DNA of 64,000 nucleotides, taken from positions 7,743 through 71,742 of the forward strand of contig JAZSGY010000015.1 in assembly GCA_045532985.1 (NCBI GenBank), in the 5' to 3' direction. The position numbers and the translations under genes were made by a program. Shown here piece by piece: positions 1,631 to 64,000 of this stretch. Each line of letters starts with the position of its first letter. The stretch's first letter is position 1. The notes beneath the pieces are model-generated. The model had not been told where the DNA came from. It made no database searches and saw only the letters and a program-made list of their open reading frames with translations. Origin of the DNA: Eubacteriales bacterium (GTDB lineage Bacteria; Bacillota; Clostridia; Oscillospirales; CAG-272).

Positions 1631-2803
1631 ATGTCATTGATTGAAAGAAAAAAGCCTCTCTTTTTCAAAAAACACACGCAAGACGCTCAAAAAAAGAACA
1701 GGTGTGACCCGTCCCTGCTTATTCTGATCCTTATCCTTTCGGCATTTGGCTCACTGATGGTCTTTAGTGCAAGCTACGCCTATGCCGAGCGACGTTACGG
1801 TGACAGCTTTTATTTTATAAAACGGCAGATCCTTTGGCTGTTCGTCGGGCTTGTCGCTATGTTTTTGACCTCGCGGCTCTCAATTGCCACACTGAAAAAA
1901 GCCGCCCCCTTTGCCTACCTTTTCACCGTCGTTTCCCTGATCCTTGTTCCGATCATTGGAACGACGGCGGGCGGCGCCCGACGCTGGATCTCAATCGGCG
2001 GTCTTAGCTTTCAGCCGTCGGAGTTTGCCAAAATGACCTTGATCCTGATGCTTGCGTATTATTTTGAGCGAAAGCGCGAGAAGATCCTCGCTTACGACAA
2101 GCCGCGGGAAAGCATTACATACGGAGCCCTGATCCCCTTTGCATTGATCGGAGCCGTATGCGGTCTCGTTATGCTGCAAAAGCATCTTTCGGGGTTGATC
2201 ATACTCGGTGCCATCGGTATACTCGTCATGTTTCTCGCCGGAACGAATCCAAAGATCCTCGGGTCGTTGGCTCTAATGGGCGTTGCTGCAGTCAGCGCGC
2301 TCGCGCTCTTTACCGACTATACGAAGCGACGCATTCTGATCTGGCTGAATCCCGAGCTTTATCCGCTCGACGGCGGCTGGCAGACGCTTCAGGGGATGAT
2401 GGCGATCGGATCGGGCGGTTTTTTCGGACTCGGCTTTGGAAACAGCAGATTGAAATTCAGTTACGTGTCGGAGCCTCAAAACGATTTCATCTTCACGATC
2501 ACCTGCGAGGAGCTTGGATTTCTCGGCGCACTCTCGGTAATCCTTTTGTTCACACTTTTCGTGGCACGTGCCTCTAAGCTCGCGCTCAACGTAAACGATC
2601 CCTTTGCGAAGATCGTCGGGCTCGGGCTCGGCTGCAAGGTGGCTTTACAGGTTCTTTTAAACATCGCGGTCGTCACGAACACGATCCCGAATACCGGCAT
2701 CTCGCTCCCCTTCTTCAGCTACGGCGGTTCCTCCTTGGTGATGCTCTTTACAGAGATGGGCATCCTCCTTGCAATTTCGAAAATTTCAAATACCGGAAGG
2801 TGA
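1631..2803 (+). CDS. ftsW: SEDS-family cell division / peptidoglycan polymerase protein (FtsW/SpoVE type)
   Basis: Multi-TM protein with FQPSEFAKM and a C-terminal PFFSYGGSS motif typical of FtsW/RodA/SpoVE. I chose the ATG at 1631 (aggagg RBS at 1621-1626) rather than the track start at 1595, which overlaps the end of mraY. Confidence 0.9.
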   Translation: MSLIERKKPLFFKKHTQDAQKKNRCDPSLLILILILSAFGSLMVFSASYAYAERRYGDSFYFIKRQILWLFVGLVAMFLTSRLSIATLKKAAPFAYLFTVVSLILVPIIGTTAGGARRWISIGGLSFQPSEFAKMTLILMLAYYFERKREKILAYDKPRESITYGALIPFALIGAVCGLVMLQKHLSGLIILGAIGILVMFLAGTNPKILGSLALMGVAAVSALALFTDYTKRRILIWLNPELYPLDGGWQTLQGMMAIGSGGFFGLGFGNSRLKFSYVSEPQNDFIFTITCEELGFLGALSVILLFTLFVARASKLALNVNDPFAKIVGLGLGCKVALQVLLNIAVVTNTIPNTGISLPFFSYGGSSLVMLFTEMGILLAISKISNTGR

Positions 2804-2807
2804 TTTT

Positions 2808-3920
2808 TTGAAAATTCTTTTAACGGGTGGCGGCACGGCGGGACATATCAATCCCGCGATTGCCATCGCAGAGCTTTTGAAACGGAATCTACCAAACGTA
2901 AAGATCGCTTATGCGGGCACGCCAAACGGTCTTGAGCGGGATCTGACGGCGGTTCTTTCGTGTCCGTATTACGCCATTCGTTCCTACGGCTTTTCGCGCC
3001 GTCCTACCATCAAAAATGCCGTCGCCGCCGTGCGGGCCGTTCTCTCTCCGATCGAGGCGCGACGCATCATCCGCGATTTTCGCCCCGACCTTGCCGTTGG
3101 GACGGGGGGCTACGTTTGTTGGCCGATTCTGCGTGCCGCCGCGCACGAGGGCGTGCCCGTTGCGATCCATGAATCAAACGCACTCCCGGGACTTGCCGTA
3201 AGACGACTTGAAAGGCATGCAGACCTAGTTATGCTGAATTTCAAGGAGAGCGCCGCCCTTTTAAAGCATCCCGAAAAAACGTTGCAAACGGGAATTCCCT
3301 TACGCGCAAGCTTTGGAATGCATTCGTATAAGGAAGCAAGAAAAAGGTTGGGCGTCCCGAAGGATGCTTTCTATGTTCTATCCTTTGGAGGAAGCCTCGG
3401 AGCTGAGACGGTCAACCGTACGGTAGTGGAATGGATGGCAAGATACGGCGAGAAAAAGCAAAATCTCTACCATCTGCACGCCGCGGGAAGCTACCGTAGC
3501 AATTTCGTGGAATGCTATCTGCACTATACGCGACTCGTTAACAGTAAGGAGCGTTTGCAGATCATCAAATATATCGACGATATGCATTTGCAAATGGCGG
3601 CCGCCGACCTCGTGATCTGCCGCTGCGGTGCGGTCACTCTCGCAGAGCTTTCCGCACTTTCAAAGCCGTCGATCCTGATCCCGTCGCCAAACGTGGCGGA
3701 CGATCACCAGAAGAAAAACGCACTGCTCTTTGCAAACGAAAAAGCCGCGACTCTGCTTGAGGAGCGCGAGCTTTCCGCGGCGACGCTCGAGGATGCGATC
3801 CTCCCCTACTATGAAGCACCCGAGCTCCGCCGTACCGCGGGGGCTGCCGCGCACCGTTTTTTCGTACCGAAAAGCGATCGCATCATTTTCAATTCCTTGA
3901 TGGAATTGCTTGGGTGTTGA
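2808..3920 (+). CDS. murG: UDP-N-acetylglucosamine--N-acetylmuramyl-(pentapeptide) pyrophosphoryl-undecaprenol GlcNAc transferase (MurG)
   Basis: The N-terminus KILLTGGGTAGHINPAIAIA is the MurG G-loop. The likely start is TTG at 2808, after ggaagg. The track start ATG 2769 lies inside ftsW and would add 13 aa. Confidence 0.9.
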   Translation: MKILLTGGGTAGHINPAIAIAELLKRNLPNVKIAYAGTPNGLERDLTAVLSCPYYAIRSYGFSRRPTIKNAVAAVRAVLSPIEARRIIRDFRPDLAVGTGGYVCWPILRAAAHEGVPVAIHESNALPGLAVRRLERHADLVMLNFKESAALLKHPEKTLQTGIPLRASFGMHSYKEARKRLGVPKDAFYVLSFGGSLGAETVNRTVVEWMARYGEKKQNLYHLHAAGSYRSNFVECYLHYTRLVNSKERLQIIKYIDDMHLQMAAADLVICRCGAVTLAELSALSKPSILIPSPNVADDHQKKNALLFANEKAATLLEERELSAATLEDAILPYYEAPELRRTAGAAAHRFFVPKSDRIIFNSLMELLGC

Positions 3921-4015
3921 ATGTTCTGCCCTGAATTATTGATCGGTTTTTGTCATTCAAAACATTTTGAAGTGCTAAAAAATTGTTAACAATCTATGAA
4001 TTTTAAAATTACCTA

Positions 4016-4044
4016 TTGCAAAAAAAAGAGTTTCAAGTTATTAT
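4016..4044 (+). promoter_or_regulatory. candidate sigma-A promoter upstream of ftsZ
   Basis: TTGCAA (4016-4021), a 17 nt spacer, then TATTAT (4039-4044), inside the AT-rich 223 nt gap before ftsZ. Confidence 0.4.
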
Positions 4045-4143
4045 ATAAGTAGATATTTATATATAATATTTGTCATCCGTTTCTTTGCTTTTCCGAAAGC
4101 GAAGAACAGCGATAGGAATTTTAAAATTACGGAGGTATTTTTT

Positions 4144-5292
4144 ATGCAGTTCGAAGTGGACGATTTGTATAGCAGTGGTGTGAATATCAAGGTCATCGGT
4201 GTCGGCGGTGGCGGCGGAAACGCGGTCAATCGCATGATCTCCACGAACATCCGCGGTGTTGAATTTATCGCGATCAATACGGACAGTATGGCACTGAACA
4301 ACTCCAGCGCATCACAGAAGCTGGTGATCGGTGAGAAGATGACGCGCGGCTTCGGTGCGGGTGCAAACCCCGACATTGGCAAGCGCTCTGCCGAGGAAAG
4401 CATCGATGATATCCGCCGCATTCTCGAGGGCTCTGAGATGGTCTTCGTCACCACGGGTATGGGTGGCGGTACAGGTACCGGTGCTGCGCCCGTCGTAGCA
4501 AAGGCGGCGCATGAAATGGGTATTCTGACCGTCGGTATCGTAACCAAGCCCTTCACCTTTGAGGGGCGTAAGAGAATGAAGCACGCCGAGGAAGGTATTG
4601 AGGAGCTGAAGCAGTACGTTGACTCCCTGATCGTAATTCCGAACGAAAGACTGAAGCAGGTATCCGATACGCCGATCACGCTCGCAAACGCATTTGAGAT
4701 CGCCGACGACGTTCTGCGCCGCGGTGTTCAGAGTGTTGCGGAGCTGATCAACGTTCATCAGTTTGTAAACCTCGACTTTGCCGACGTGACCTCGGTCATG
4801 AAGGACGCAGGATATGCACATATGGGCGTCGGCTCCGCAAAGGGTCCCGATAAGGCGCATCTTGCCGCAATGCAGGCGATCTCCTCTCCTCTGCTTGAGA
4901 CCTCGATCGCAGGCGCGACCGGTATTCTTATCAGTATCGTCGGATCGCCCGACATCGGGCTTGAGGACGTAGAGCTTGCCTCGACTATGATCACCGAGGA
5001 GGCGCATCCCGATGCAAATATCATTTGGGGTGCCGCATTTGATCCCGAAATGGAGGATGAGATGCGCGTCGTGATCATTGCAACGGGCTTTGATTCGGGC
5101 AAGAAGCCGCAGGCAGTTGAAAGCACGGTCACGCAGCCCGTGGCGACCCCGATCACGGAGGCTACCGATCCCGTTGTTCCCGACGTCGTAACGCCCCAGG
5201 CACCCAAGAAAGCCGAGAACACCCAGATCTCCGACGGCGATTTTGAGGATATTATGGAGATCCTCAACCGTTCGAGAAACAAAAACTTCTGA
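4144..5292 (+). CDS. ftsZ: cell division GTPase FtsZ
   Basis: [13 protein letters not shown] and the tubulin signature [13 protein letters not shown], followed by a disordered C-terminal linker. Confidence 0.97.
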
Positions 5293-6855: not shown

Positions 6856-7593
6856 TCATTCGCAGACGGCAATCGTGACCCCGATGACCTCCTTGGCACC
6901 CGCTTTGTAGAGCTGCTTTGCCGCATTCCCGAGAGATGCGCCCGTAGTCGTCACGTCATCTACGAGAAAAATCCGCTTTCCACGCAGTGAGAGGTTCCTT
7001 TTGACAGAGTACGCATCCTTCATATTTTCAAAGCGTGCGTCTCTTTCTTTTTTCTTTTGAACGCCTGCATTTTTCCGACGGATCAAAGTGCTGTAACATC
7101 TGATGGAAAGCAGCTTTGCGATTCTTTTGGCGAGGTACTGACTTTGATCAAAGCCGTATTCCAATTTGCGTGAACGGCTTCGCGGTGCAAAGGTAAGAAC
7201 GTAATCTGGATTTTCAAACGCATCGGGAAGCGAACGCCTGATTGAGGCGACAAGCTCCTGTGCGAGAAAATCCCGACACAGCACGTCGCGCTTCTCTTTC
7301 ATCAAATGTACGATGTGATTGGTCGAATGCTCCGCCTCATCTCTGTCCTCACGCACGTAGCGGAAGAGCTTGAACAGCTTTTTCACGTGAAAATCGCGAA
7401 GCCTTTCCGTAGAGCAATTACAACGCGAAAATCTTTGTCCGCAAGCAGTACAGGGCACGTGCGTTGCCGCAAGATAGATCATTTCACATCGCTCGCAGAA
7501 GATCGAATCGTCATTTCCAAGCAGCTCGTCACAGATCGCACAGCGCGGCGGGAACAAAAGCGAGAGCATTCGTTTCATAAAACCTGATCTCAT
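6856..7593 (-). CDS. comFC: ComF-family protein (phosphoribosyltransferase domain with N-terminal Cys4 finger)
   Basis: N-terminal CAICDE...CERC...CTACGQ Cys clusters and a C-terminal PRTase motif IFLVDDVTTTGASL. The true start may be the ATG at 7578. Confidence 0.75.
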   Translation of the reverse strand: MRSGFMKRMLSLLFPPRCAICDELLGNDDSIFCERCEMIYLAATHVPCTACGQRFSRCNCSTERLRDFHVKKLFKLFRYVREDRDEAEHSTNHIVHLMKEKRDVLCRDFLAQELVASIRRSLPDAFENPDYVLTFAPRSRSRKLEYGFDQSQYLAKRIAKLLSIRCYSTLIRRKNAGVQKKKERDARFENMKDAYSVKRNLSLRGKRIFLVDDVTTTGASLGNAAKQLYKAGAKEVIGVTIAVCE

Positions 7594-7632
7594 AATTTCA
7601 AAGGGTGCCGTAAAGCGGCACCCTTCCTTTCA

Positions 7633-8589
7633 TCAATAGAAGGTGGCAATTTCAGGATCGGGAGCGGTAGCCGCCTCAGCCGAAATGAATTCAAGGATCG
7701 GTCCCTTTCCTCCGTAGAGCTTGTTATAATCCACCACGAATTTTGCCGTCAGAACGAGCCAGTCGCGCGTGCGGTAGGTCTTTCTGTCCTTGGCGCGGCA
7801 AATGACGCCGCGGTATGCCGTATCCGCCTCACAGCAGACCATAATATGGCGTCCGATCACAAACATGGTATCCGGGAGCTTGCCGTCTCTTGCGACGATC
7901 CCCTTGAAGCGAATCGTCTTTCCCACGTATTTACTGAAATCCTCGGTCATATCGCGGTACCAGATGGCGTAATCGGTATCCTTGATCTCGATGATCGGCG
8001 CCTCGATATCGAAGGGGAGCGGATCCTCGATCTCATCGTATTCCACTCTGCCGTCCTCGTATTCGTACGCGATCATTGCCTTGCGCGATACACCGCGCAC
8101 GATCTTGTGGAAGCTTTCGCGATCAGCGTTCTCAGGGCGGTTGAAAATAACCATTTCGCAGCTCTGGAGCTTATCAACGACAAGACTGCGCATATTTGCG
8201 TTATAGCTTTGGAAGGTTGCGGAATCGGCAAAAAACAGCTCCTGATAAACGAACCACCCCTCAGGCAGTGCGTTGTAAAAGGAATCGAGCGTCCACATAC
8301 CGTTGTATTCGACCATAAGACGCTGCATTTGATGCTTCGCCTGCAGATCCTTCAAAAATGACGGTGTCAGCTCTGCGACGTCCTCAACGCGCACGATCTC
8401 AACGGTCCCCTTCGGAAAATCGTAGGGATCGTATTCCTCTATCCCCTCTTCGCAAAGCAGTAAGAGCGTCTTTTCGCCCGCATTGAACTCGGGATCGCTG
8501 AGCGTGTTGCGAATGACGGTCGTCTTTCCTGCCTCCAAAAATCCCGTGAAGAGATAAACGGGCATTTCTACTTGCGGTTGATTGTTCAT
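7633..8589 (-). CDS. G3E/CobW-like P-loop protein with a C-terminal CCxAD domain
   Basis: Walker A GFLEAGKTTV at the N-terminus. The C-terminal FVIGRHIMVCCEADTAYRG resembles, from memory, the CC-x-AD motif of DUF1980/TIGR03943 proteins. The start is coupled to the upstream G3E gene (overlap at 8586-8589). Confidence 0.65.
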   Translation of the reverse strand: MNNQPQVEMPVYLFTGFLEAGKTTVIRNTLSDPEFNAGEKTLLLLCEEGIEEYDPYDFPKGTVEIVRVEDVAELTPSFLKDLQAKHQMQRLMVEYNGMWTLDSFYNALPEGWFVYQELFFADSATFQSYNANMRSLVVDKLQSCEMVIFNRPENADRESFHKIVRGVSRKAMIAYEYEDGRVEYDEIEDPLPFDIEAPIIEIKDTDYAIWYRDMTEDFSKYVGKTIRFKGIVARDGKLPDTMFVIGRHIMVCCEADTAYRGVICRAKDRKTYRTRDWLVLTAKFVVDYNKLYGGKGPILEFISAEAATAPDPEIATFY

Positions 8590-9638
8590 TTTACCATAAA
8601 CAGCACGGACAGTGCTTCCTTATCAATTTTAGAGCCGATCACGCAAAGTCTGCCCGTAATATCGGCAGCACCGCGACGGATATCCGACTCACCCGGAATG
8701 TAGTCGAAATGGATCCATTCGCCATCAGCGGCAGGGAGAATTCCCTTGGCACGCAGGATCATACCGAAGGAGTCGTCCTCGTCAAAGCGATCGAGGATCG
8801 TACGGATCTCATCCTCCGTAAAGCTGCGCGCGGTCTCGCATCCCCAGCTGGTGAACACCTCGTCCGCATGATGGTGATGATGACCGTGGCATCCGCAATC
8901 ACAATCCTCATCGTGGTCGTGGTGGTGATGCTTGTGATCGTGGTCGTGGCATCCGCAGTCGCAATCCTCGTCGTGGTCGTGATGATGATGCTTATGATGA
9001 TGGTGATGCTCCTGCTCCATCTGTTCAAGCTCTGCGTGCAGCGTATTTTTCTGCTCGATCGCAGCAAGGAGCTGTGCGCCCGTGAGCTTATCAAGCGGTG
9101 TTGTGACGATCGTAGCCTTCGGATTGCGTTCGCGCAAAAGCGCGACCGCCTCGTCGATCTTAGCCGCGGAAGCGCGTTCCGTGTGGCTGAGGATGACGGT
9201 CTTTGCGTGCTCGATCTGATCGTTGAAGAATTCACCGAAATTCTTCATATACATTTTGCATTTATTGGCATCGACCACCGTCGTGAGGCCAACGGCGGAA
9301 GCCCCCTCACCGATCGCGCCGTGTACCGCGCGCATAACGTCGCTCAGCTTGCCAACGCCCGGGGGCTCGATCAGGATTCGGTCGGGGGAATACTCTGCCA
9401 GAACCTTTTGAAGCGCCTCGGAAAAATCGCCGACGAGCGAGCAGCAGATACAGCCCGAGTTCATCTCGGTGATCTCGATCCCCGCCTCCTTCAGAAATCC
9501 GCCGTCAATGCCGATCTCGCCGAATTCGTTTTCGATCAGAACGACCTTTTCACCGGCGTACGCCCCACTCAGCAGCTTTTTGATCAGCGTGGTCTTTCCC
9601 GCACCGAGAAATCCCGAAAAAATATCAATTTTCGTCAT
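8586..9638 (-). CDS. CobW/G3E-family metallochaperone GTPase with a His/Asp/Cys-rich insert
   Basis: Walker A GFLGAGKTTL, the CxCC motif NSGCICCSL, and a His-rich stretch HHHHHKHHHHDHDEDCDCGCHDHDHKHHHHDHDEDCDCGCHGHHHHH. The start is taken as ATG 9638 (RBS aaggaag), because the longer track ORF reads through the tRNA-Lys gene. Confidence 0.85.
   Translation of the reverse strand: MTKIDIFSGFLGAGKTTLIKKLLSGAYAGEKVVLIENEFGEIGIDGGFLKEAGIEITEMNSGCICCSLVGDFSEALQKVLAEYSPDRILIEPPGVGKLSDVMRAVHGAIGEGASAVGLTTVVDANKCKMYMKNFGEFFNDQIEHAKTVILSHTERASAAKIDEAVALLRERNPKATIVTTPLDKLTGAQLLAAIEQKNTLHAELEQMEQEHHHHHKHHHHDHDEDCDCGCHDHDHKHHHHDHDEDCDCGCHGHHHHHADEVFTSWGCETARSFTEDEIRTILDRFDEDDSFGMILRAKGILPAADGEWIHFDYIPGESDIRRGAADITGRLCVIGSKIDKEALSVLFMVK
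8881..9000. repeat. 2 x 60 nt in-frame tandem repeat inside the CobW-like gene
   Basis: Hand alignment of 8881-8940 against 8941-9000 gives 50/60 identical positions. Each copy encodes one KHHHHDHDEDCDCGCH-type cassette. Confidence 0.85.
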
Positions 9639-15171: not shown

Positions 15172-16065
15172 TCATTTATGCTCGGGCAAGCCCGATACGA
15201 AAACGGATGCGTAAAGGGCATGCGCCATTAAAAACTTAGGAATACCGTAAAGCACGGCGTAAAGACCGAGGGTAAAAAACGAAAGAACGACCCCCGGCAA
15301 GCGTCCGATATAAAACCGCAGAAGCTCCCATCTGTGTCCATACACGGCGTCGCGGCTTTTACGGAAGCAAGCCGACGTGCATACGCCGTGATCGCACAGC
15401 AAACGGTAGGCGATCGAAATATGAGTATCCACGGAAAAAAGGACAAACAGTAAAAGAAGCGAAAGGGACAGCAAAACAGCGGAGCCGTACACGAGAGATG
15501 CTGCCGCAATATTTCCGTAGGAAAGCAACAGATCTGCCGCTAAACTTGCGATGATCGCCGTGGCGCAGATCGATATAGCAAGACAGAGCGTACGCCGTAC
15601 GGAACGCAAAAACGACCGCAAAGCAAAGCGACGAAGCCATTTTTTTGAAAAGGGGTAAAAGATGCTCTGCTCGGGATACTCTGCCCCGCGCGCGACCGCA
15701 AACGAATAGGCGTAAAGCCCGTAAAGCAACGGGATGACGGTAAACATCGCGAATGAAAGAGACAGAAGCGAAGCGAGGGGAAACGAAAGGTACGGTGCGA
15801 CCCGCGACAAAAGCGAAAAAAGACCGCTATGGTACACCAACGCATAGGAAAGATAAGTCGCGCCCGCAGTGGCAAGCAAAAGCAGTCCCACACCGCCGCG
15901 AAGCGTGCGGAGAACGTCCTTATCCCTCAGGATCCATCGCGCTTCACGTAAAAGGAGCGCACGGCGCACCGCGGGTTTTGTGATATCGGGCGTTTGATCC
16001 TGCTTCTTTGAGCTTTTCATGTTTTTCTCCTTGACAGATACGATTTCTGTATCCATATTTGCCAT
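15172..16065 (-). CDS. polytopic membrane protein of unknown function
   Basis: 297 aa ORF with several long hydrophobic segments. It lies 24 nt upstream of metG on the same strand. No motif recognised, and the start codon is uncertain. Confidence 0.55.
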   Translation of the reverse strand: MANMDTEIVSVKEKNMKSSKKQDQTPDITKPAVRRALLLREARWILRDKDVLRTLRGGVGLLLLATAGATYLSYALVYHSGLFSLLSRVAPYLSFPLASLLSLSFAMFTVIPLLYGLYAYSFAVARGAEYPEQSIFYPFSKKWLRRFALRSFLRSVRRTLCLAISICATAIIASLAADLLLSYGNIAAASLVYGSAVLLSLSLLLLFVLFSVDTHISIAYRLLCDHGVCTSACFRKSRDAVYGHRWELLRFYIGRLPGVVLSFFTLGLYAVLYGIPKFLMAHALYASVFVSGLPEHK

Positions 16066-51525: not shown

Positions 51526-51793
51526 TTATGTATCTCCTTTTCTAACAAAAAACCCGCCATAGCCGTGTAGAGCGAAATATGACCCTGCCAGTGCAGGTAG
51601 GTGTCCGCTCCCGTACATTGTGCTCCCAGCGTCCGATGCGTTCGGTAAATACGGAACGGTCGGGAGGTCTGCATACCCGAAACGGGAATAAAGACTCCAA
51701 TATCATGTTTGTAGGTCCAATTATCACTCTATCACGAACCAGGCAGGCTGATCTTCTCTTTTATCTTATGACGGAGCGCGTGAGATTATACGG

Positions 51794-62309: not shown

Positions 62310-62338
62310 TTGACTTTTTTTAGAAAATGCTCTATAAT
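62310..62338 (+). promoter_or_regulatory. near-consensus sigma-A promoter in front of the tRNA-Pro-like fragment
   Basis: TTGACT (62310-62315), a 17 nt spacer, then TATAAT (62333-62338). Confidence 0.7.
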
Positions 62339-62351
62339 ACTGTTCGTGCTT

Positions 62352-62416
62352 CGGGATGTAGCGCAGCTGGTAGCGCGCCTGGTTTGGGAGCAGGACACCG
62401 ACTACACTCTCCGAGA
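62352..62416 (+). pseudogene. tRNA-Pro-like fragment lacking a T arm (pseudo-tRNA or integration/duplication remnant)
   Basis: CGGGATGTAGCGCAGCTGGTAGCGCGCCTGGTTTGGGA matches the acceptor 5' strand, D arm and UGG anticodon loop of tRNA-Pro. After about 62390 there is no GTTCGAATC T loop and no acceptor complement (GCAGGACACCGACTACACTCTCCGAG). Confidence 0.65.
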
Positions 62417-62557
62417 AAATAAAAAACGCCGAAAAGCCTTGTAAACACTGACTTTTTCGGCACTCTGCTCTCTCGCAAAAACCTCTATAAAAGTGGTTTG
62501 ACCACATGTTTGACCACTTACGGAAATTGACCTAAAAATTGAATATTTTTCACACAT

Positions 62558-62633
62558 CGGGGTGTGGCGCAGTTGGTAGCGCGCGACGTTTGGGACGTCG
62601 ATGCCGCAGGTTCGAATCCTGTCACTCCGACCA
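62558..62633 (+). tRNA. tRNA-Pro (anticodon UGG)
   Basis: CGGGGTGTGGCGCAGTTGGTAGCGCGCGACGTTTGGGACGTCGATGCCGCAGGTTCGAATCCTGTCACTCCGACCA. It folds as a complete cloverleaf with anticodon loop TTTGGGA and an encoded CCA. Confidence 0.92.
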
Positions 62634-62670
62634 AAAAGCCTTGAAAACATTGTGTTTTCGGGGCTTTTTA
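62634..62670 (+). terminator. composite hairpin after tRNA-Pro
   Basis: aaagcc..gaaaac-attgt-gttttc..ggcttt followed by tta. About 29 nt of it are homologous to 62432-62460, downstream of the tRNA fragment. Confidence 0.55.
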
Positions 62671-62703
62671 CAATATACCAATTTAATTGAGGTGAATATC
62701 AAA

Positions 62704-64000
62704 ATGGCAAAAGAGTTTAAAGTCTTTTTCTCTTGGCAATCTGATTTATCAGCCAACCAAACAAAACTTTTCATCGAAGAAAGCATCGAAATGGCAAAAA
62801 AACTTTTGCCTGATTCGATAACACTTATTCCAGACGAAGCTACACGTAATCGTTTAGGATCACCAGATATAATGAATTCAATTTTTGAAAAAATTGATGA
62901 CTGCGATTTGTTTATCGCAGATGTCAGTATTGTGGGGCAATACTCCCTGCCTGCCGAAGAAGGAGAAGATCCTATAATCAAACATCTCCCCAATCCTAAC
63001 GTTCTTCTTGAATTAGGATATGCTGCAGCGCGCATTTCTTGGGACAGATGTATTTGTTTTGCTAATACTAAATTTGGTTCTGTTTCACAATTGCCTTTCG
63101 ATTTAAATCACAGAAGAATAACCGACATTTCATATGAAAACAGTACTCGTAAGCAGAAAATTTCTGACATCGCAGAGATAATCAAATCAACTGTACTCGC
63201 TTACGCAGATAAACCTATTGCAAAAATCGGATTCGCACACCACATGATAGGCTGTTTTGATTTTAATAGTGGCGACATTGTAGGTGAAATTATTCCTTAT
63301 AACAACGTCACCATGGATGCGTATTGTAGAAAAACTCAAACATTACTCGAAAAAGCCAAAGCAACAGTTATTGAAATTTCAGAAATCAAACTTCCTGCTA
63401 AAACAATTGTTGTGGAAGAAGATTTTGAAGAAAAAAATGGGGACATGACTATCAATGATATTTTAAAAGATCCTGAATTGTCCAAACAATTTTCGTTAAT
63501 AACATCAAATGCCCATGATGTAAAAATTGACAAAGAATATATAACTGCAAATACAAAAAAATACTTTGGCATTGATATTGAAGATAGCTTTTATAATGTA
63601 GGCAATTTACAAGAGTGTTCATCCATTATCCCTCATACCCCTCCTTCTTTAGAAGGATCAGATTTAGAAAAGAAAAAATTTAATTTGATTGAACAATTAG
63701 AGGGTATGTTTGCAAAAATCGAGTTAAGAGAAGTTTTTCGAAAATTATTTGATGATATCCTCATTATTCCACTGTCGATAAAAAATGCGTCAACCAAAAA
63801 TGACGAAAGAATATCGATTAATATTAAAATTAACCAAGGAATGCCTATACGTCCCACATCAAAGTTTTTTGATCCCGATTATGCTGGATTGGAAGGATTG
63901 GTATACGATGAGCATTTGATAAAAGAACTATTGAAACTGCCAGAAAGCAGTCTAATCAAGTACGATTCATCGTTTCCCAGAGAAGCAATATCCCCAGTTG
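62704..64000 (+). CDS. large uncharacterised protein with an N-terminal TIR / nucleoside 2-deoxyribosyltransferase-like domain; 3' end outside the window
   Basis: I translated 62704-64000 by hand and found 432 codons with no stop. An RBS gaggtg lies 9 nt upstream. The N-terminus is KVFFSWQSD...CDLFIADVS...NPNVLLELGYAAA...PFDL. This ORF is absent from the supplied track because it is open-ended. Confidence 0.8.
   Translation, partial: MAKEFKVFFSWQSDLSANQTKLFIEESIEMAKKLLPDSITLIPDEATRNRLGSPDIMNSIFEKIDDCDLFIADVSIVGQYSLPAEEGEDPIIKHLPNPNVLLELGYAAARISWDRCICFANTKFGSVSQLPFDLNHRRITDISYENSTRKQKISDIAEIIKSTVLAYADKPIAKIGFAHHMIGCFDFNSGDIVGEIIPYNNVTMDAYCRKTQTLLEKAKATVIEISEIKLPAKTIVVEEDFEEKNGDMTINDILKDPELSKQFSLITSNAHDVKIDKEYITANTKKYFGIDIEDSFYNVGNLQECSSIIPHTPPSLEGSDLEKKKFNLIEQLEGMFAKIELREVFRKLFDDILIIPLSIKNASTKNDERISINIKINQGMPIRPTSKFFDPDYAGLEGLVYDEHLIKELLKLPESSLIKYDSSFPREAISPV

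Follow-up and report, generated by a model that had tools for sequence, protein, structure and literature searches.

We examined a 64,000-nucleotide stretch of DNA from a Eubacteriales bacterium (contig JAZSGY010000015.1, positions 7,743 to 71,742 of the forward strand; hereafter the window), near the right end of which a strong promoter is followed by the 5′ part of a tRNA-Pro gene and then by a complete tRNA-Pro(UGG) gene. With a probability of roughly 0.85, we read this locus as attL, the left junction between host DNA and a tyrosine-integrase element whose target is the anticodon loop of tRNA-Pro and which does not rebuild the gene that it splits but supplies a tRNA-Pro of its own. The contigs and loci with which the window was compared carry L numbers, and coordinates are those of the window unless a contig is named.

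A split and a complete tRNA-Pro gene behind one promoter

The features of the locus, named according to this reading, are as follows.

62310–62338 (+): promoter of the resident (host) tRNA-Pro, TTGACT-17-TATAAT, of sigma-70 type with 11/12 consensus matches
62352–62382 (+): resident tRNA-Pro, its orphaned 5′ part spanning positions 1–31, read directly; Rfam aligns this part as tRNA positions 1–43
62381–62389 (+): crossover region (core) GGTTTGGGA, the anticodon loop TTTGGGA (62383–62389) plus two stem bases, where host-type likeness ends and element-type likeness begins
62390–62557 (+): left arm of the integrated element (attL, P′-type arm), 168 nt, 87% identical to the arm of L207 and alignable with 16 other arms
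62428–62461 (+): conserved arm hairpin GCCGAAAAG...CTTTTTCGGC, −10.8 kcal/mol, z = −3.1, found in all family arms
62493–62521 (+): direct repeat pair GTGGTTTGACCAC-ATG-TTTGACCAC-TTAC, candidate integrase arm-type sites, occurring once in the window versus 0.03 times expected
62510–62539 (+): putative weak promoter-like site TTGACC-18-AAAAAT ahead of the element tRNA, overlapping the second repeat, 9/12 consensus matches
62558–62633 (+): element-borne complete tRNA-Pro(UGG), the replacement gene, called by ARAGORN, with an Rfam score of 65.7 bits and a cloverleaf fold
62634–62669 (+): intrinsic terminator behind the element tRNA, a 17-bp stem of −20.2 kcal/mol (z = −5.5) and then a U run
62704–64000 (+): first 432 codons of an element cargo gene that runs off the window, AT-rich (33% G+C), with a weakly TIR-like N-terminus

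The promoter, the 13 nt between its end and the start of the fragment at 62352, and the likeness of the fragment to tRNA-Pro through the anticodon loop had all been described in a first-pass annotation of this DNA, and each was borne out. Positions 62352–62389 read as tRNA-Pro positions 1–38, with the acceptor 5′ strand CGGGATG, the D arm GCGC/GCGC, the anticodon stem 5′ strand CCTGG and the loop TTTGGGA. The complete tRNA-Pro(UGG), which the same annotation had placed ∼165 nt further on, begins 168 nt past the fragment's anticodon loop and is the one tRNA-Pro that ARAGORN finds in the 64-kb window. The two units agree at 32 of the 38 positions of the 5′ part, and GTTTGGGA is indeed common to both anticodon loops (62382–62389 and 62588–62595). 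On the left side of the promoter lie feoA and feoB, both on the minus strand, and on the right side the G+C content falls from ∼52% to 33% past ∼62700.

The fragment could in principle be a functional RNA in its own right, either a tRNA lacking the T arm or a tRNA-like regulatory leader. Its strong and conserved promoter would suit such a role, as would the intact D arm, an anticodon stem that pairs at 4/5 positions, an acceptor stem that can pair at 5/7, and the recurrence of fragment-plus-arm units in many contigs (see below). Against this, the covariance-model and ARAGORN check that had been proposed for the fragment finds no valid tRNA: ARAGORN makes no call on 62352–62389, and the Rfam tRNA model gives 24.6 bits, below its gathering score of 29, at the cost of a T-arm deletion and two acceptor mismatches. 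Neither the maintained stems nor the detection by a tRNA model that characterize functional tRNAs without a T arm are thus seen here. The fragment together with the next 25 nt folds no better than shuffled sequence (z = +0.6), and the orphan halves of other loci gave no tRNA match at E ≤ 1. A 5′ half derived from the host and a 3′ side derived from an element could not have co-evolved, and the promoter is simply that of the resident tRNA. We therefore regard a functional fragment as hardly probable at all.

The sequences behind the two units are related in one respect. The homology between 62432–62460 and 62634–62661, put at 24/29 positions by the first-pass annotation, is real, with a local alignment score of 32 versus 12 ± 2.2 for shuffled sequences and 0/3000 shuffles reaching it; it makes the arm hairpin homologous to the terminator behind the element tRNA. 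A further likeness, in which a degenerate CACTCTCCGAG was taken to mirror CACTCCGACC as the decayed 3′ anticodon stem and acceptor strand (62390–62417), dissolved into chance, since 565/3000 shuffles score as well. The arm hairpin has no U run on the plus strand and is thus not a plus-strand terminator, and a consensus scan of that strand found no terminator-like site between the host promoter and the element tRNA. At a permissive threshold no Rfam family matched the arm (62390–62557), and besides the two tRNA matches the search returned two small RNA (sRNA) matches at chance level over the intact tRNA and its terminator (E = 4.3 and 9.5).

Host-derived and mobile sides of the junction

A search that covered 185,579 species genomes and 5.8 billion proteins found a single close relative, the Clostridia metagenome-assembled genome (MAG) L001 from roe-deer caecum, whose FeoB is 94% identical to that of the window. 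In L001, feoB and feoA are followed by an identical promoter layout (TTGACT, 17 nt, TATAAT) and directly thereafter by one intact tRNA-Pro(UGG), with no second tRNA-Pro copy at that locus. The window and L001 agree at 83% of positions across the 120 nt upstream and at 82% across the 5′ part of the tRNA, and past the anticodon loop their identity drops to 50%, the random level. Judged by this likeness up to the loop and the random level after it, the fragment is the host's resident tRNA-Pro gene, intact as far as the anticodon loop. An element lying on the left side of the window was also considered and was rejected, as the left flank is syntenic with L001. Look-ups of FeoA and FeoB as exact proteins had no result, and no other contig of this genome turned up. 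A promoter–tRNA pattern scan of metagenomes gave no match, nor did a scan of metagenome and viral collections for the window-specific tRNA–hairpin junction, and a search of a plasmid collection gave tRNA-level matches only.

The right side of the junction has a different distribution. Sister copies were obtained by blastn of phage records, which returned human-gut virome scaffolds with the layout of the window, by a scan of IMG/VR with the double repeat TGACCACNNNTTTGACCAC, and by looking up homologues of the cargo gene. In L207, where an ilv/leu operon lies upstream and the 60-nt upstream flank is 54% identical to that of the window, the arm is 87% and the tRNA 100% identical to the window's, the orphan 5′ half has another anticodon stem (CGTGC), and behind a homologous cargo gene lie two genes for tyrosine integrases, encoded on the opposite strand. 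Identity between L206 and window positions 62509–64000, a stretch that includes the tRNA, is 98.3%, and L206 continues through the cargo gene (548 aa) and a terminator into the 3′ end of an integrase gene, and L205 has the identical layout in a third host context. Because identities of 87–100% recur in unrelated host contexts, the 168-nt arm, the second tRNA and the DNA to the right of it are, by sequence comparison, a unit that travels together between genomes. Within the arm, L206 is also of interest in itself: from its position 65, which corresponds to the second TTTGACCAC (window 62509), it is near-identical to the window rightwards and unrelated leftwards, so that a recombination breakpoint falls within the arm, at this repeat.

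Both sets of comparisons bear on the origin of the two units by duplication, in which a tRNA-Pro-plus-terminator unit was doubled in this lineage and the promoter-proximal copy then decayed internally, losing its T arm. This had been one of two explanations offered by the first-pass annotation, and the agreement of the two units in their 5′ parts, the significant homology behind each of them and the end-to-end alignment of the fragment by Rfam with the T arm deleted all speak for it. However, L001 has a single tRNA behind the matching promoter, and the spacer and second tRNA are 87–100% identical in unrelated hosts whose orphan halves differ, the second tRNA being fully identical to the element's there; both copies and their spacer are thus not inherited vertically as tandem duplicates would be. 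The sequence past the loop aligns with element arms elsewhere and not with a tRNA 3′ half, and in the complete relative L204 (see below) the displaced 3′ half lies 13 kb away. These observations make duplication very improbable. The other explanation offered, in which recombination or integration left a scar in the anticodon loop and the locus is a hotspot beside an AT-rich island, is supported: the junction lies in the loop and its right side is a mobile arm in other hosts.

The position of the crossover follows from the same alignments. At the core, the similarity to L001 (host-type) stops and the similarity to L207 and L204 (element-type) starts, and the 5′ strands of the anticodon stem differ among hosts (CCTGG, CGTGC and CATGG). 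The core of the window is bracketed to 62381–62389 and no finer, while a direct repeat of 9 bp was measured in L204. A MAFFT alignment of 17 distinct arms shows that the GC at the junction is invariant and that the hairpin and the GACCAC repeats are present in all.

The repeats of the arm form a regular pattern. Three TTGACC copies between the units had been reported at 62508, 62521 and 62528; the copies exist, but they lie at 62498, 62510 and 62527 (the third spanning 62527–62532), so that two of the reported positions were about ten bases off. The palindrome GTGGTTTGACCAC reported with them is present at 62493–62505. The repeat pair is invariant across family arms, ∼110–135 nt to the right of the core. 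Comparable pairs lie on the opposite arm, at a distance of ∼110–135 nt to the left of the core, in L178 (876–899) and in L204 (15406–15429), where CGACCACACCTTTGACCATCTAC on the right-hand arm mirrors the pair on the left-hand one. This mirrored placement about the core is the layout expected of arm-type sites for a heterobivalent tyrosine integrase, and the TTGACC / TTTGACCAC repeats are most likely the sites of the integrase arm-binding domain. By sequence, no solved arm-binding domain was matched by the N-terminal 70 residues of Int1, the first of the two integrases. Separately, a second class of double repeat, TTTGACCACAATTTTGACCACAAT, lies directly past a terminator hairpin in the other viral contigs L187, L190, L192, L195, L199 and L203, and probably marks the ends of another element family with similar repeats.

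The AT-rich island appears to be cargo of the element, with a first gene of defence type. The cargo protein matches PF10137 (E = 0.006) and a PADLOC TIR effector (E = 0.001), both below cut-off, and no other family. Full-length homologues of 526–548 aa occupy the slot behind the element tRNA in L205 (10001–11596), L206 (206–1852) and L207–L209 (10001–11593 in L207). The next genes are Int1 and Int2 in L207 and Int1 plus another open reading frame in L209, and L206 has the 3′ end of an Int1-like gene at this place. In L210 the cargo gene lies behind a tRNA-Pro without an orphan half or integrases. More distant homologues (53–57% identical; L211–L214) lie in conjugative elements or beside a serine recombinase and not at tRNA-Pro, and they yielded no further complete copies.

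A complete copy and a family of tRNA-Pro arrays

One relative, L204 (MT835887.1, 15.9 kb), contains both junctions of an element (attL and its right-hand counterpart, attR). It starts with the host gene typA/bipA and a promoter, after which come the following features.

2273–2310: orphan tRNA-Pro 5′ half, ending in ...CATGGTTCGGGA with GCAAATC across the junction
directly after the 5′ half: arm of 155 nt with the hairpin and TCTGACCAC-ATG-TTTGACCACTTAC
2466–2542: complete element tRNA-Pro
2640–4076 and 4063–5241 (−): two Phage_integrase genes, Int1 and Int2
15537–15583: orphan 3′ half, ...TTTTACGGTTCGGGA at the junction with CCATGAGGCCATGGGTTCAAATCCCGTCACTCCGACCA (CCATG...CACTCCGACCA)

A 9-bp direct repeat, GGTTCGGGA, bounds the 13.2-kb insert, and the strands CCATG and CACTCCG of the 3′ half pair with CATGG and CGGGGTG of the orphan 5′ half. 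The missing 3′ half, which the first-pass annotation had suggested seeking at the distal end of the island, is therefore found at the expected place in this complete relative. Behind the integrases lie a MobL relaxase and an HTH_36 protein, with no phage genes in the contig.

The wider family repeats the arrangement with variations; it was compiled from sixteen IMG/VR loci, GenBank scaffolds, the window and the contigs to which the cargo gene had led. In about 20 other contigs, between one and three orphan 5′ halves occur, each of them running at TTYGGGA, followed by GC, into an arm of ∼150–170 nt that carries the hairpin and two TTTGACCAC repeats, and one intact tRNA-Pro comes next. Every array closes with exactly one tRNA-Pro accepted by ARAGORN, and the 3′ half of this last tRNA pairs with its own 5′ half and not with those of the earlier orphans. 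A small insert consisting of an arm and a 5′ half and reusing the host's 3′ half was considered as an alternative unit of insertion and was rejected on this ground. Arrays appear to grow stepwise at their 3′ side, to judge from L087 versus L082 and L164 versus L095: L087/L196 (one unit and tRNA_B) have a left flank in common with L082, in which unit 1 leads into the 5′ half of tRNA_B and then into a new arm with tRNA_C behind it.

Ten array loci have, downstream and on the opposite strand, orthologues of Int1 and Int2 that are 55–63% identical, and the tandem tyrosine integrases (∼480 and ∼390 aa, with ∼38–40% mutual identity) are conserved family-wide, as in L204 (2640–5241), L207 (11659–14268), L127, L135 and L103. 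The slot between tRNA and Int1 is variable (for example L095 432–2138, L166 853–2941 and L082 957–2095) and holds a retron-type RT-Toprim I-C (823 bits in PADLOC), a PtuA/PtuB-like pair (PDC-M01A/B, 604 and 191 bits in PADLOC), a DUF4238 protein or, in the lineage of the window, the TIR-like protein of 526–548 aa. In L166 an RT-2 RNA (RF03077, 132 bits) was also observed within the element at 8534–8766 on the minus strand, adjoining a reverse transcriptase gene (7340–8524).

Joints resembling the attachment site of the free element (attP), of the form Z-core-arm, occur in L095 and L178, with repeat pairs flanking the core on both sides. On the reverse strand of L095 (10301–10330), a Z-GGTTTGGGA-GCGTAGACGG arm comes after phage genes for tail, amidase and holin-like proteins. 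It lacks a tRNA 5′ half on its left and precedes an array with three orphan halves, and some arrays may therefore lie inside phage genomes. In L178 (995–1233), a Z-GTTTGGGA-arm joint is followed by a hybrid tRNA in which the 5′ half (CCGCA) and the 3′ half (CCAAG) fail to pair; it is rejected by ARAGORN and scores 42.5 bits in Rfam. L173 and L178 lie on a single IMG/VR contig (3300045988_182345), where the attP-like joint is 16.6 kb from the array and the left and right orphan halves mismatch, which suggests recombination between the core of the element tRNA itself and the right junction.

We propose the following course of events. An integrative element with tyrosine integrases would have recombined inside the anticodon loop of the resident tRNA-Pro, at a core of about GGTTTGGGA. 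Because attP and the host's site (attB) would have only this short core in common, the host gene would not be rebuilt and would stay split, with its 3′ half expected beyond the window, where the element ends. The element's complete tRNA-Pro(UGG), 168 nt inside attL, would then take over and may be needed by the host. The host promoter probably reads through into this replacement tRNA, which is plausible because no plus-strand terminator precedes it and the strong one comes only after it, and the weak internal promoter TTGACC-18-AAAAAT perhaps adds to its expression. Two integrase genes on the opposite strand would be expected just past the end of the window, and the window copy may still be mobile.

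Several observations weigh against this account. The window stops 1.4 kb past the element tRNA and shows neither the integrases nor the right junction of its own copy; when an orphan tRNA-Pro 3′ half was sought in the 64 kb, the intact gene was the sole match. The ∼100 nt behind the single tRNA of L001 resemble the family's spacer between tRNA and Int1, through a conserved stretch CTTTTTCTTTG...AAATTTTGAGGG-hairpin that lies at 360–458 (−) in L001, at 2543–2640 in L204 and at 1853–1915 in L206, ahead of the 3′ end of Int1, and the L001 contig ends 460 nt later. The L001 site may thus not be a naive empty one, and a canonical relative or a remnant may be present there. The disrupted host tRNA-Pro of L204 has the anticodon CGG, whereas the element tRNA has AGG, making it another isoacceptor, and its loop TTAGGGA is one base off the core; AGG is an unusual anticodon in bacteria. 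Finally, the hybrid and rearranged joints of L178 and L173/L178 are not explained by simple integration, and the window copy could be a fixed remnant and not an active element.

The last point can be extended into a reading in which the locus is a scar and not a resident active element, the body having been lost or rearranged when the core of the element tRNA recombined with the right junction, or the AT-rich DNA being a second, different insertion, with the arm and tRNA left behind. The joining of unlike tRNA halves in L178 fits such a history, as do the cargo gene of L210, the departure of L206 from the window to the left of 62509, and the hairpin behind the tRNA, which copies that of the arm. 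However, the order of arm, tRNA, hairpin, cargo gene and integrase in L206 and L207–L209 matches the window base for base up to the window's end, and the element tRNA is self-consistent and not a hybrid. A scar is in our view unlikely, and integration with replacement of the tRNA is retained below.

Elsewhere in the window, a 6S (SsrS) RNA gene was found at 51547–51752 on the minus strand, with an Rfam score of 50.1 bits versus a gathering score of 46.4.

Relation to known systems and significance

The closest precedent is tRNA-dependent lysogeny, described for Fionnbharth and other mycobacteriophages of Subcluster K4 and Cluster L, whose site attB-4 lies in tRNA-Lys-TTT (Guerrero-Bustamante and Hatfull 2024, PMC10865867). 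There, a tyrosine integrase acts on an attB in a tRNA gene through a core of ∼10 bp, the tRNA is not reconstructed, putative arm-type sites flank the core, and a phage tRNA of matching isotype complements the loss, as was shown experimentally (PMC10865867). By sequence comparison, four defining features of that system appear to be present at the window locus or in its sister copies. The attB overlaps the host tRNA gene (62352–62389); the tRNA is not rebuilt at the junction, with a core of 9 bp in L204; the element carries a tRNA (62558–62633) that recurs in L207 at 100% identity and within the 98.3% identical stretch of L206; and an integrase lies beside the attachment site in L207, L206 (3′ end), L204 and ten array loci, its counterpart for the window copy being expected outside the window.

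Unlike the mycobacteriophage systems, these elements reside in Bacillota, in Clostridia of animal guts, and target tRNA-Pro. Their replacement tRNA is placed immediately behind the host tRNA promoter, at a distance of 150–170 nt from the core, the orphan 5′ halves build up into arrays with as many as three members, and the anticodons differ in L204, where CGG is disrupted and AGG supplied. At least one complete copy (L204) is mobilizable, with a MobL relaxase and two integrases but no phage genes, and other arrays adjoin phage tail and lysis genes. The mechanism fits tRNA-dependent lysogeny, but the word 'lysogeny' may not. The authors of that work describe its prevalence outside Actinobacteria as unknown and mention a possible case in the Lj965 prophage of Lactobacillus johnsonii (PMC10865867). 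As summarized in that citing paper, Lj965 resembles the window locus in its Bacillota host, in a tRNA left unrestored at the junction and in carrying the cognate tRNA; it differs in being a prophage and in its tRNA target. In a full-text literature search for tRNA-dependent lysogeny, no paper reporting Clostridia or tRNA-Pro was found.

The likeness to canonical islands in tRNA and tmRNA genes extends to a tyrosine integrase that splits a tRNA gene, an AT-rich cargo, integrase genes near the tRNA-proximal end and, in L204, a displaced tRNA fragment at the far end. Such islands, as outlined in the description of Islander, carry sequence that makes the split gene whole again at the junction (PMC4383910). 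At the window junction, by comparison with that outline, the fragment is dead and a separate whole gene is supplied.

We also consider, tentatively and at a little less than an even chance, that the replacement tRNA-Pro acts as a portable attachment site. Newcomers would integrate into the tRNA of a predecessor, so that phages, mobilizable elements and defence cargo stack up and the array of 5′ halves records successive invasions, with the arm being a relic of a canonical attP. The distances hint at such a descent of the arm from a 'tRNA 3′ half plus terminator' attP, the arm hairpin lying 42 nt from the core and the terminator of the real gene 38 nt from its loop, although the part of the arm that would correspond to the 3′ half has no similarity above chance.

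For annotation, the orphan half is to be treated as an integration junction and not as a pseudogene or an odd tRNA, and it gives the left end of the AT-rich island at base level. Compared with what had been seen at this locus before, the present analysis adds that the element does not rebuild the tRNA but carries a whole replacement gene, that the TTGACC repeats fit integrase arm-type sites and that the arrangement belongs to a recurrent family. The locus is what would ordinarily result from an integration strategy that was recognised only recently and is still rarely documented. Relative to the published cases, it adds a replacement tRNA behind the host promoter, arrays of orphan 5′ halves and a slot for defence-gene cargo. 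The short core and the arm repeats make a compact attP/attB pair, a candidate tool for integration in Clostridia.

Integration that kills and replaces a tRNA, experimentally shown only in mycobacteriophages, appears to be widespread in uncultured gut Clostridia, both in mobilizable defence islands and in phages. If the sole working copy of a tRNA belongs to an element, that element would be hard to lose save by precise excision, and this would help it and its defence cargo to persist. If the reading of a portable site and a relic attP is true, the family documents a transition from tRNA-restoring to tRNA-replacing integration, which was left open by Guerrero-Bustamante and Hatfull.

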